From Aggregatibacter sp. HMT-949 (GTDB taxonomy: Bacteria; Pseudomonadota; Gammaproteobacteria; Enterobacterales; Pasteurellaceae): a stretch of DNA of 40,000 nucleotides. A model generated the notes under the pieces. The model was given only the letters and a program-made list of their open reading frames with translations. It was not told the origin of the DNA and did no database searches. The position numbers and the translations under genes are program-made. Shown here in pieces: positions 3,109 through 37,631 of this stretch (the stretch's first letter is position 1; every line of letters begins with the position of its first letter). The stretch covers positions 730,445-770,444 of the forward strand of contig NZ_CP162010.1 in NCBI RefSeq assembly GCF_041734645.1, read 5' to 3'.

Positions 3109-3153
3109 AGCACCGCATTGGAGCCTTATTTGGCGCGGCTTCAATGCGGTGCT
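3109..3153. repeat. Inverted pair of the CAATGCGGTGCT motif forming a 17-bp-stem hairpin (1 G-T position, 11-nt loop) between nirK and parC
   Basis: agcaccgcattggagcc (3109..3125) pairs with ggcttcaatgcggtgct (3137..3153). There is no U-tract on either side, so it is not a canonical intrinsic terminator. Confidence 0.85.
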
Positions 3154-23842: not shown

Positions 23843-23887
23843 TTATGGTTTCTGTTTTTGTTTATGGAACAGCGCCCCAAGCGTGTT

Positions 23888-23960
23888 CAATGCGGTGCTG
23901 ATTCGTTACTTCGTTGTAATCTTCTAGGTTTGCCATATAACGAGCGTTCAATGCGGTGCT
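23888..23960 (+). repeat. Two direct copies of GTTCAATGCGGTGCT (23888..23899 and 23949..23960, 61 bp apart) inside the hyfI-hyfJ spacer
   Basis: Exact 12-mers with similar flanks: gcgtgttcaatgcggtgctgatt and gagcgttcaatgcggtgctaatt. Confidence 0.9.
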
Positions 23961-34455: not shown

Positions 34456-36738
34456 ATGAACATTCGTCAACTCATCAAACAGCACCGCATTGAACGCCTA
34501 TTCCAGCAAGGCACTTTCGGCATTGAAAAAGAAAGCCAGCGCGTTTATGCGGACGGCTCGATCGTCACAACGGAACATCCAAAGACGTTTGGTAATCGCA
34601 GTTTTCACCCTTATATTCAAACGGATTTTGCTGAAAGTCAGTTAGAATTAATCACACCACCGACAAAATCTTTAGAAGACACTATGCGTTGGCTTTCCGC
34701 AATTCATGAAGTCGTATTGCGTAGTTTGCCGGAAGACGAATATATTTTCCCGCTCAGTATGCCTGCCGGTTTGCCGCCGGAAGAACAAATTAAAGTCGCG
34801 CAATTAGAGAATCCGGAAGATGTGGCTTACCGCGAATATTTGGTGAAAAGTTACGGCAAATATAAACAAATGGTGAGCGGTATTCACTACAATTTCCAAC
34901 TTGATCCGTCTGCCGTTAAAGCGCTTTTTGAGGCGCAAACGGAAGAAAAAAATTTGTTCAACTTCCAGAATAATTTATACCTGAAAATTGCTAAAAATTT
35001 TCTACGCTATCAATGGATCTTGCTGTATTTACTTGCCGCCACGCCGACTGTGGACGAAAATTATTTTCGTGAGGGTTCGCCGCTGCGTCCACAACAATAT
35101 GTGCGTAGCTTGCGTTCCAGTCCCTTTGGTTATGTGAACGATCCGGAAATTAAAGTCTCTTTTGATAGCCTGGAAGCCTATGTTGACAGTCTTGAGCATT
35201 GGGTGAACAGTGGTAAGTTAATCGCTGAAAAAGAATTTTATTCAAATGTCCGCTTACGTGGCGCGAAAAAAGCACGCGATTTATTGCAAAGCGGCATCCA
35301 ATATCTTGAATTCCGTTTGTTTGATCTCAATCCCTTTGCCGCTTGCGGTCTTCTTTTAGAAGACGCCAAATTTATTCATTATTTCATTTTATTAATGGCG
35401 TGGTTAGAGGATACAGCGGATCAGGACGCGATAGAACTGGGTAAAGGACGTCTTGCGGAAGTGGCGTGGGAAGATCCGTTGGCGCAAAGCGCGTATTCGG
35501 TGGAAGGCGAGCTAGTACTTTTTGAGATGCTTGAAATGCTTGAAGAACTGCAAGCCGATGATGGAATTAAGGCGATTGTAAGGGAAAAATTCACGCAATT
35601 TGCCGAACCGTGGAAAACTGTTTGCGCGAATGTCGTGGTTGCTATTGAGAAAGCGGGCGGTTATCAGCAATTAGGCGCGGATATTGCAAAAGGCAATAAA
35701 CTTCTTGCTTTTGAGCGTTTCTATGCCTTGTCTGCATTCGATAATATGGAACTTTCTACCCAAGCATTGATGTTCGATGCGATCCAAAAAGGCTTAAAGA
35801 TCGAAATTTTAGACGAGCGCGATCAATTCCTAAGTCTGCAATACGGCGAGCATTTGGAATATGTGAAAAACGGTAATATGACTTCGCACGATAGCTACAT
35901 TTCGCCGCTAATTATGGAAAATAAAGTGGTGACTAAAAAGGTATTGGCAAAAGCCGGTTTTAACGTGCCGCAAAGCATGGAGTTTAACGATGTGCAAACT
36001 GCGGTGGAGAATTTTCCGCTATTTGACGGTCGCGCGGTAGTGATTAAACCGAAATCCACTAATTTCGGCTTGGGCATTACCATTTTTCAACAAGGCGTGC
36101 AAAATCGCGAAGACTTCGCCAAAGCGGTGGAAATTGCCTTCCGTGAAGATAAAGAAATTATGGTAGAAGATTATTTGATCGGCACCGAATATCGTTTCTT
36201 CGTATTAGGCGATAAAACCTTGGCGGTATTATTACGTGTGCCGGCAAATGTTATTGGCGACGGTGAACATACAATTAAACAATTGGTGGCGATGAAAAAT
36301 GCTGATCCGTTGCGCGGTGATGGTAGTCGCACGCCGTTGAAGAAAATCGCCTTGGGGGATATTGAAGAATTGCAGTTAAAAGAGCAAGGTTTCACACCAA
36401 TCTCCATTCCGCCGAGAGATGTTATTGTTCAGTTGCGTGCGAATTCGAATATCAGCACCGGCGGTGACTCGATTGATATGACTGATCAAATGCACGAAAG
36501 CTACAAACAACTTGCTGTCGATATTAGTAAAGCAATGGGCGCGGCAGTGTGTGGCGTGGATTTGATTATTCCCGATTTAACCAAACCGGCTCAGCCGAAT
36601 TTGCAGTCTTGGGGCGTCATTGAAGCCAATTTTAATCCGATGATGATGATGCATATTTTCCCGTATGCGGGGGAAAGTCGTCGAGTAACGTTGGACGTCA
36701 TTAGTATGTTATTTCCGGAACTGCCGTTGTATCGTTAA
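34456..36738 (+). CDS. gshF: bifunctional glutamate-cysteine ligase / glutathione synthetase (GshF, also called GshAB)
   Basis: 760 aa. The N-terminal gamma-glutamylcysteine ligase domain has GIEKESQRV and SGIHYNF. It is fused to a C-terminal ATP-grasp domain (VVIKPKSTNFGLGI, EYRFFVL, IEANFNP), as described for Pasteurella multocida and Streptococcus agalactiae. Confidence 0.92.
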   Translation: MNIRQLIKQHRIERLFQQGTFGIEKESQRVYADGSIVTTEHPKTFGNRSFHPYIQTDFAESQLELITPPTKSLEDTMRWLSAIHEVVLRSLPEDEYIFPLSMPAGLPPEEQIKVAQLENPEDVAYREYLVKSYGKYKQMVSGIHYNFQLDPSAVKALFEAQTEEKNLFNFQNNLYLKIAKNFLRYQWILLYLLAATPTVDENYFREGSPLRPQQYVRSLRSSPFGYVNDPEIKVSFDSLEAYVDSLEHWVNSGKLIAEKEFYSNVRLRGAKKARDLLQSGIQYLEFRLFDLNPFAACGLLLEDAKFIHYFILLMAWLEDTADQDAIELGKGRLAEVAWEDPLAQSAYSVEGELVLFEMLEMLEELQADDGIKAIVREKFTQFAEPWKTVCANVVVAIEKAGGYQQLGADIAKGNKLLAFERFYALSAFDNMELSTQALMFDAIQKGLKIEILDERDQFLSLQYGEHLEYVKNGNMTSHDSYISPLIMENKVVTKKVLAKAGFNVPQSMEFNDVQTAVENFPLFDGRAVVIKPKSTNFGLGITIFQQGVQNREDFAKAVEIAFREDKEIMVEDYLIGTEYRFFVLGDKTLAVLLRVPANVIGDGEHTIKQLVAMKNADPLRGDGSRTPLKKIALGDIEELQLKEQGFTPISIPPRDVIVQLRANSNISTGGDSIDMTDQMHESYKQLAVDISKAMGAAVCGVDLIIPDLTKPAQPNLQSWGVIEANFNPMMMMHIFPYAGESRRVTLDVISMLFPELPLYR

Positions 36739-36760
36739 AACTGGCTAAGCAGAATCGAAA

Positions 36761-36793
36761 TTCGCTCTTTCGTTTGAAAGAGCGAATTTTTTT
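36761..36793 (+). terminator. Rho-independent terminator after gshF
   Basis: Perfect 11-bp stem ttcgctctttc / gaaagagcgaa with a 4-nt loop, followed by T7. Confidence 0.9.
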
Positions 36794-36857
36794 ATCGAAA
36801 ATTAATGGCCGGTGCACGATTTATGCAGAAATAAATGCCCGACATAAGATTTAGCAA

Positions 36858-37004
36858 GGGTTCAATGCGGTGCTCTGAGAAGGGTTCAATGCGGTGCTCT
36901 GGGAAGAGTTCAATGCGGTGCTCTGAGAAGAGTTCAATGCGGTGCTCTGGAAAGAGTTCAATGCGGTGCTCTGAGAAAAGAGTTCAATGCCGTACCGCAT
37001 GAAG
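36858..37004 (+). repeat. Tandem array: 5 copies of a 24-bp unit (one is 26 bp), each containing GTTCAATGCGGTGCT, plus a degenerate sixth palindromic copy
   Basis: Units start at 36858, 36882, 36906, 36930 and 36954 (consensus gRgttcaatgcggtgctctgRgaaR). The sixth, gagttcaatgccgtaccgcatgaag (36980..37004), abuts the stop codon of the DUF1919 gene. Confidence 0.95.
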
Positions 37005-37631
37005 TTATTTGCCATTAAACCACGCCACATAATCGAATTGATCATAATATTTCACGCCATTCCACCCGGAAAAGGTAAACAAATCGCCTACTTGGTTTTG
37101 TTTTTCAAAACCTTTGATATAAAACGCGGATTTAAATTCGGGATAAGGTTTGCGAGTGAACACCACTTTATTTTTGAAGGGCAGTTGATCGAAGGCGGCT
37201 AAATCTTCATAAGCGATGCCTTGCGCATCGTCTTTGTCGGTCATCATGATAAACAGATTATCCAAATTCATTCGGGCGGAACGCGCCAGCCATTTTTGTT
37301 GGGCTTCTTGACTGTTGCGATAGTGCATAAAGTGAACTTTAAGATCGGCTAATTTTGCGACGGGATAAGGTTTCTCTGATTGGATAAAGGTGAGCGATTG
37401 TCGTTGATAAAATTCGATATTTTGCAGGTAACGAACGAAATCGTTCGGGCTTAAGTAGAGATTTACGAACGGTGAGTTAAACGGTTCATTTAAATCGTGC
37501 AGAATAAACGCGCCCACACAATTGGCGGAAATTACCGTCATGCCGTGATTTTGTAAACGAGATTTGAGTCGGCGATTGATAAATATTCTTTGTATTTTGT
37601 TGATCGCGCTTCTGATTTTTGATAACAGCAT
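37005..37631 (-). CDS. DUF1919 family protein (uncharacterised; family is often found in polysaccharide loci)
   Basis: 208 aa. VISANCVGAFILHDLNEPFNSPFVNLYLSPNDFVRYLQN matches my recollection of the DUF1919 N-terminal signature (NCxGG...L...F.SP...D). Confidence 0.55.
   Translation of the reverse strand: MLLSKIRSAINKIQRIFINRRLKSRLQNHGMTVISANCVGAFILHDLNEPFNSPFVNLYLSPNDFVRYLQNIEFYQRQSLTFIQSEKPYPVAKLADLKVHFMHYRNSQEAQQKWLARSARMNLDNLFIMMTDKDDAQGIAYEDLAAFDQLPFKNKVVFTRKPYPEFKSAFYIKGFEKQNQVGDLFTFSGWNGVKYYDQFDYVAWFNGK

Follow-up and report, generated by a model that had tools for sequence, protein, structure and literature searches.

Two recent surveys recognize only two USS types among the Pasteurellaceae, Hin and Apl. 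The Hin type consists of the core AAGTGCGGT followed by a T-rich flank, and its GCGG inner core holds the only bases that are individually critical for uptake in H. influenzae (PMC3458573). Point mutation in DNA is a known route of USS evolution, and overlapping inverted USS pairs are typical of gene ends (PMC7811141).

Here we describe a locus in Aggregatibacter sp. HMT-949 at which a motif of this kind is repeated head to tail. The window, by which we mean the whole 40,000-nucleotide stretch of DNA that was analysed, carries the repeats between two convergent genes, and the finding is a minisatellite (VNTR) that has an uptake-signal motif as its unit and is attached to a USS pair of the terminator type. 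The motif is more surprising than the array itself; it differs from the cores of both described USS types while behaving like them across the region.

Structure of the array between gshF and the DUF1919 gene

The convergent placement of gshF and a DUF1919 gene on either side of the array, proposed in a first-pass annotation of this DNA, agrees with the ORFs, the gene tables and the Pfam matches. Homologues of gshF carry the name bifunctional GshA/GshB, while the predicted DUF1919 protein is identical to WP_373604142.1, a DUF1919 domain-containing protein of Aggregatibacter sp. HMT-949, a human oral taxon. The same annotation put the start of the array some 65 bp after a strong gshF terminator, and this too is correct: the array begins about 65 bp past the T run of a perfect hairpin, the 14 bp arms of which (36758-36771 and 36776-36789) are 100% complementary and form in both the MFE and the centroid folds. 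This terminator could also serve the - strand, more weakly. The features of the locus are as follows.

34456-36738, + strand: gshF, bifunctional glutamate-cysteine ligase / glutathione synthetase; 760-aa ORF with Pfam Glu_cys_ligase and ATP-grasp matches
36758-36796, + strand: gshF intrinsic terminator; 14-bp arms, 4-nt loop, then a T run
36797-36860, no strand assigned: unique spacer from terminator to array, ending in AAGGG, which is the 3' end of the repeat unit
36861-36884, 36885-36908, 36909-36932, 36933-36956 and 36957-36982, + strand: full units 1-5 (from TRF, exact matches and parsing)
36983-37004, no strand assigned: terminal hybrid unit TTCAATGCCGTACCGCATGAAG, 22 nt, an imperfect palindrome (from the sequence)
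37005-37631, - strand: DUF1919 gene, HI_1244-like; 208-aa ORF, PF08942, E = 1.6e-80

Tandem Repeats Finder (TRF) reports the array at 36856-36990, with a period of 24, 5.5 copies, 91% matches and a score of 217, and it is by a wide margin the strongest tandem repeat of the whole window. Exact motif matching finds a perfect GTTCAATGCGGTGCT five times, starting at 36860, 36884, 36908, 36932 and 36956, which bears out the annotated presence of a perfect motif in each of the five units; allowing up to two mismatches brings the matches to GTTCAATGCGGTGCT in the window to 16, where shuffles would lead one to expect 0.07. When parsing is begun at TTCAATGC, each unit resolves into TTCAATGCGGTGCT followed by CTGrGAAGrG, with one copy of the USS-like motif in each of the five. 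The earlier description as a 5.5-copy, 24-bp array is therefore sound as regards the repeat that TRF and exact matching detect, but the units are not all of 24 bp, because the fifth has an extra AA and is 26 nt long.

The terminal hybrid unit, which is conserved in every allele, is composed of a degenerate + strand motif overlapping a degenerate - strand motif, TTCATGCGGTAC. Its end at 37003/37004 falls 1 nt short of the DUF1919 stop codon (TTA on the + strand), which starts at 37005 and abuts the array. Both this position and the composition from a forward and an inverted half had been noted on first inspection and stand, but what was described as a 'small hairpin' formed by the two halves is more aptly seen as two USS that overlap in inverted orientation, as is usual at gene ends. 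In the fold of the - strand, UUCAUGCGGU of the hybrid pairs with ACCGCAUUGAA of the adjacent unit. When RNA from both strands was folded, however, only the gshF hairpin was robust, and the z scores of about -2.5 to -2.8 are dominated by that hairpin. A stem of the form CTCT-GNRA-AGAG, present in each unit on the + strand, was considered and set aside; it has only 4-5 bp and lies 3' of the strong terminator.

Searches for other functional elements gave little. The promoter scan of the region yielded a single match, at 36774-36802 on the + strand, which falls on the gshF terminator, some 60 bp ahead of the array, with no gene downstream of it, and promoter-like matches in the region are fewer than in shuffles. 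Rfam gave nothing at threshold, its sole match being a chance one to a snoRNA, of 17 bits where the gathering score is 42, and BLAST of the array and spacer against plasmid and phage collections returned no match.

Several familiar types of repeat locus were considered and rejected. A phase-variable contingency locus does not fit a tract that lies beyond both stop codons of convergent genes and is not set between promoter elements. An iteron-type replication origin does not fit a locus with only chromosomal housekeeping genes as neighbours and no counterpart in the plasmid and phage collections, and a CRISPR array does not fit units that abut, the 10-nt 'spacer' between motifs being itself repeated.

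The repeated motif as a candidate third USS dialect

The motif is by no means confined to the array. Its core, CAATGCGGT, is the top over-represented 9-mer outside the array, with 19 copies in 40 kb, or 75-fold over expectation; the longer CAATGCGGTGCT has 11 copies outside the array in the window, and AATGCGGT has 25 copies on both strands in 47.6 kb, motif counts covering about 48 kb of the genome. The resulting density is approximately 0.5 per kb, in coding and non-coding DNA and on both strands. The dispersed copies share the consensus yTCAATGCGGTGCTrwTT, in which a conserved GCT follows the core and the 3' flank is rich in T (GCT r w T T), and the array units themselves are without this T-rich flank. 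Inverted motif pairs are found at 3109/3139 in the window and at 40340/40352, just past the window end, in the extension provided by contig L001. Positions of dispersed CAATGCGGT(GCT) include 2423, 3109, 3139, 9036, 9868, 11515, 23885, 23946, 26472, 28520 and 34481, and two of the sites are set out below.

3109-3153, no strand assigned: dispersed inverted pair behind a gene, AGCACCGCATTGGAG ... CTTCAATGCGGTGCT (from motif matches)
34481-34495, - strand: dispersed motif copy in the 5' end of gshF, codons ~9-13 (from an alignment with three relatives)

The copy within gshF arose by several point substitutions, the three aligned orthologues being without a USS at this place. It alters the encoded peptide (HRIER vs HHLEL) and illustrates how USS accumulate in coding sequence. 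Elsewhere, the intergenic region behind a hydrogenase-type gene cluster has GTTCAATGCGGTGCT twice in the same orientation (23885-23960), both copies perfect and 61 bp from each other; a tandem duplication was rejected as the source of this pair, the flanks of the two copies not being repeated.

How the motif relates to the described USS types can be judged from the core and from the company it keeps. The Hin core AAGTGCGGT has seven copies in the window (5327, 6424, 15521, 16832, 19217, 19805 and 23021) and the Apl core ACAAGCGGT has none in the same 40 kb. The corresponding loci of relatives, comprising an 85%-identical gshF relative, Rodentibacter, H. parainfluenzae-like contigs and a group with a 73%-identical DUF1919 protein, carry Hin-USS at 0.5-1 per kb and CAATGCGGT once or not at all, and the Hin-USS density here is about one-fifth of that in these relatives. 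The core CAATGCGGT is two mismatches from the Hin core, and as it is neither exactly Hin nor exactly Apl it belongs to neither described dialect; it does contain TGCGGT, so the GCGG(T) inner core is kept.

Since CAATGCGGT is dominant here while the relatives carry the classical AAGTGCGGT, it looks like a third USS dialect. From its sequence and distribution, the motif is very probably a lineage-specific third dialect of the Pasteurellaceae, with a putative function in uptake, and CAATGCGGTGCT appears to have taken the place of AAGTGCGGT as the dominant USS of this genome. The seven Hin-USS could be left over from the ancestral dialect, or they could be a second variant that is accepted as well. 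A literature search for the motif string found nothing relevant. The first-pass annotation had called the motif uptake-signal-like, and the description gains from the USS-type behaviour seen genome-wide, in copy number and over-representation, occurrence on both strands, inverted pairs and possession of the GCGG core.

Copy-number variation and origin of the array

The array was compared in one NCBI contig of 1.93 Mb and about 40 metagenome contigs, which come from human metagenomes and from several studies and assemblers. The alleles, by number of full units, are listed below; contig L125, in which an N gap spans the locus, stands outside these counts.

1 full unit: L009
2 full units: L123-L129
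3 full units: L001, L007 and L010, with three different sequences
4 full units: L117 and L130-L132, in two versions
5 full units: the window and about 12 contigs
6 full units: L037
at least 9 full units: L002/L118, with an N gap inside the array

Flanks are identical across alleles of different unit number, and the unique spacer is kept in all of them except for a 1-nt A indel. The alleles have their leading units in common and differ by whole units. Because the unit counts differ between identical flanks in some 40 independent assemblies, the array is a true VNTR and not an artefact, so that the proposed comparison of copy number among assemblies has been answered: it differs between strains. 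Array length is also constant for a given gshF protein allele across studies, the P0124 type having 2 units, the P0123 type 4 and the window type 5, from which it follows that the instability is moderate rather than hyper-fast. The suggestion that the array could serve as a VNTR to separate strains is thus well founded, the alleles ranging over 1, 2, 3, 4, 5, 6 and at least 9 units and being stable within gshF-allele lineages.

Short-read metagenome assemblies often break or gap at the array (L018 and L119-L122; N gaps in L002/L118 and L125). Contigs L018 and L119-L122 end inside it, which suggests either alleles too long for short reads or mixed alleles in a sample, and as a consequence of these breaks and gaps long alleles are under-counted; the length of the longer alleles may also be misestimated in short-read assemblies. 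Assembly GCA_901420285.1 (L001, contig CABDVE010000001.1, 1.93 Mb) has the same locus and an identical DUF1919 protein, and its proteins are labelled Stutzerimonas stutzeri, apparently a taxonomic mislabel.

The array is lineage-specific. Relatives have phoH-ybeY behind gshF, and what comes after DUF1919 orthologues is either a pseudouridine-synthase-like gene or an ordinary hairpin, with no array. Synteny breaks exactly at the array (the 36738/37005 junction of the window; L032, L034, L035 and L038-L116), and the 3' ends of gshF and the DUF1919 gene have therefore been joined by a lineage-specific rearrangement.

We consider with moderate confidence that the array is a near-neutral, lineage-specific minisatellite (VNTR), seeded by a USS and a neighbouring partial inverted copy. 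The starting state would have been a USS-like site on the + strand, followed 24 bp on by a partial copy fused to an inverted copy, and the inverted USS pair so formed would have stood directly behind the DUF1919 stop codon, the usual gene-end position of USS pairs. The 1-unit allele already holds the 13-nt direct repeat AAGrGTTCAATGC twice, 24 bp apart (AAGGGTTCAATGC...AAGAGTTCAATGC), and replication slippage or unequal recombination between these 13-nt repeats would gain or lose whole 24-bp units; alleles that differ by whole units and have common leading units are what slippage or unequal exchange would give. The change in copy number is probably near neutral, and it alters no reading frame or promoter because the array lies between two convergent 3' ends. 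With its motif core intact, each unit would probably serve as an uptake site in a competent strain, although by analogy with H. influenzae and Neisseria extra units would probably add little uptake.

An alternative is that the array is an uptake hot spot that has expanded in a 'selfish' manner driven by transformation, each added USS raising the odds of uptake so that long alleles spread and the locus becomes a preferred point of DNA entry. Every unit has a perfect core. When the units are scored with a PWM derived from 25 dispersed copies (median of these copies about 26), four of the five fall at 26.8-29.2, inside the range of the copies, and the fifth, of 26 nt, falls at 17.1. The longest alleles have at least 9 units, further contigs of Pasteurellaceae origin also contain tandem arrays of the Hin-type USS (described below), and an older Neisseria study found better uptake with more DUS (as cited in PMC7811141). 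The variation inside units is also pertinent: across 12 unit types, variation affects 9 of 12 positions in the spacer but only 1 of 12 in TTCAATGCGGTG (Fisher p = 0.003), as would be expected if each copy matters. This sparing of the motif hints at constraint on, or homogenization of, each copy, as a purely neutral array should decay evenly, but it could instead reflect a recent origin of the units together with a mutable purine run.

Against such an expansion, 230 natural USS pairs within 100 bp of each other in H. influenzae were taken up in the same way as isolated USS, a result that concerns pairs of strong USS and not 5-10 copies lacking a full T-tract flank (PMC7811141), and close DUS pairs in N. 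meningitidis gave a like result (cited in PMC7811141). Alleles of 1-3 units are common and lineage-stable, so no strong drive toward long arrays is visible. The annotation had also proposed a search for other tandem arrays of the motif. A scan of 185,579 species-representative genomes for two direct CAATGCGGTGCT within 30 nt gave 13 matches, none in the Pasteurellaceae, and so found no other array of this dialect; the scan did not return the present locus either, perhaps because the HMT-949 species representative may have a single unit or the repeat may have been masked. In viral contigs, close direct CAATGCGGTGCT pairs gave only two unrelated matches. Competence in HMT-949 and the role of the motif in uptake are, moreover, putative only. 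On balance we regard an uptake hot spot as unlikely, and the more specific proposal, that transformation has amplified the third dialect CAATGCGGTGCT with each unit raising the uptake and transformation of the gshF-DUF1919 region, as decidedly unlikely.

It is also conceivable, though quite improbable, that the array is a 3'-end element of the DUF1919 transcript, in which the inverted-pair hairpin, a C-rich, G-poor RNA with possible Rho loading, or both, would stop transcription or stabilize the mRNA; it would limit convergent transcription into gshF, and unit number would tune the effect. The array is the first sequence transcribed, on the - strand, past the DUF1919 stop codon, with no other terminator before the shared gshF hairpin, and in the Pasteurellaceae terminator activity is known for overlapping inverted USS pairs placed behind genes (PMC7811141; bioRxiv 10.1101/2025.10.24.684340). 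The pairing of the terminal inverted motif with the adjacent unit in the - strand fold would suit such an element, as would the C/G ratio of 1.92 in the - strand RNA of the array (36855-37004), which is in the top 0.7% of 149-nt windows, although this C-richness follows trivially from the composition of the units. The hairpin is imperfect, however, and in most alleles no U run comes after it (CTCTTCCCAG); the terminator scan called none within the array, folding is only modestly better than in shuffles (z = -2.5), and the 1-unit allele indicates that the extra units are dispensable.

The first-pass annotation had further suggested a multi-site landing pad, here taken as one for a cytoplasmic motif-binding protein, phased at about two helical turns and either iteron-like or nucleoid-organizing. 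The regular 24-bp phasing and the strict conservation of the 12-nt motif within units would accord with this, but no gene for replication, partition or regulation adjoins the locus, there is no promoter on which a bound protein could act, healthy lineages have anything from 1 to at least 9 copies, the motif occurs about 0.5 times per kb in coding and non-coding DNA in a manner that is USS-like and not operator-like, and the plasmid and phage collections hold no similar array; we find it very improbable. An assembly artefact, or an array coding for an 8-residue peptide repeat, can be dismissed as extremely improbable: a period of 24 is a multiple of 3, mechanical ORFs cross the array on both strands and some contigs break or have N gaps within it, but the array is present with identical flanks in some 40 independent assemblies, the 1.93-Mb contig included, and the ORFs through it have no Pfam match, the 26-nt unit shifts the frame, and translation continued in the DUF1919 frame meets a stop after 6 codons.

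Significance and comparison with known systems

The array itself is probably an ordinary and harmless product of slippage rather than a special uptake device, and its interest lies in what it makes available. It can serve directly as a strain-typing marker in a human oral Aggregatibacter that has received little study, and it separates lineages in public metagenomes. The natural series of alleles with 1, 2, 3, 4, 5, 6 and at least 9 units could settle the conflicting answers that have been obtained on clustered uptake sequences, and, if transformation-driven amplification were true, the same series would be a living record of molecular drive on uptake sequences. If the motif is indeed a third dialect, it would offer an independent means to test the recently predicted USS receptor (ComN/PpdA) and to follow how uptake specificity changes inside a genus. 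In practical terms, the array breaks or gaps short-read assemblies and so fragments the genomes of this species at the locus.

Tandem USS are not peculiar to HMT-949. The annotation knew of no described arrays of this kind, and a literature search likewise found no tandem USS or DUS array, but the array is not unique, since a scan of IMG/VR viral contigs for three close Hin-type USS gave two relevant cases.

L135:6321-6407 and L137:1969-2055 (two samples): 13-bp x 7 array of classical USS (AAGTGCGGTagaa), between convergent ORFs
L139:4066-4122: 12-bp x 5 array of AAGTGCGGTtaa, in frame in a 232-aa ORF with KSAV repeats

The L135/L137 array adjoins a cI-like repressor and toxin-antitoxin genes, and homologues of the neighbouring gene are all from the Pasteurellaceae; it is absent from the related contigs L146-L150, which were checked for copy-number variation. 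The L139 array is a coding USS microsatellite in a phage-like element with a primase-like neighbour. This recurrence of tandem USS arrays fits the notion of USS as slippage-prone seeds. Like the HMT-949 array, both are direct tandem repeats of complete USS cores, and that of L135 also lies between convergent ORFs; they differ in their classical AAGTGCGGT core and much shorter periods, and in that the L139 array is coding.

Comparison with the Hin-type USS (core AAGTGCGGT with its T-rich flank) shows a close likeness in most respects, including TGCGGT with its GCGG inner core, a frequency of about 0.5 per kb on both strands within and between genes, pairing in inverted orientation at gene ends, richness in T 3' of the core and an origin by point mutation in coding DNA. 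The differences are that the HMT-949 motif has CAAT in the outer core where Hin has AAGT, followed by a conserved GCT, and that it outnumbers Hin-USS by 19 copies to 7 in 40 kb, whereas relatives have mostly Hin. The inverted USS/DUS pairs that act as terminators are matched by the hybrid unit, with its overlapping, opposed and degenerate motifs directly 3' of a stop codon and between convergent genes; unlike those pairs, one arm has here been amplified to between 1 and at least 9 direct copies, and the hairpin is imperfect and has no clear U run. With the phase-variable simple-sequence loci of Haemophilus and Neisseria the array shares a repeat tract that changes length, here putatively by slippage, but its unit is of 24 bp rather than 1-7 bp and it lies outside reading frame and promoter elements. 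The bacterial VNTRs or minisatellites used in MLVA offer a similar organization, in which intergenic 24-bp units are arranged head to tail, strains differ by whole units and alleles are stable within lineages; what sets the HMT-949 array apart from these is that its unit is not an anonymous sequence but the genome's own uptake-signal-type motif.
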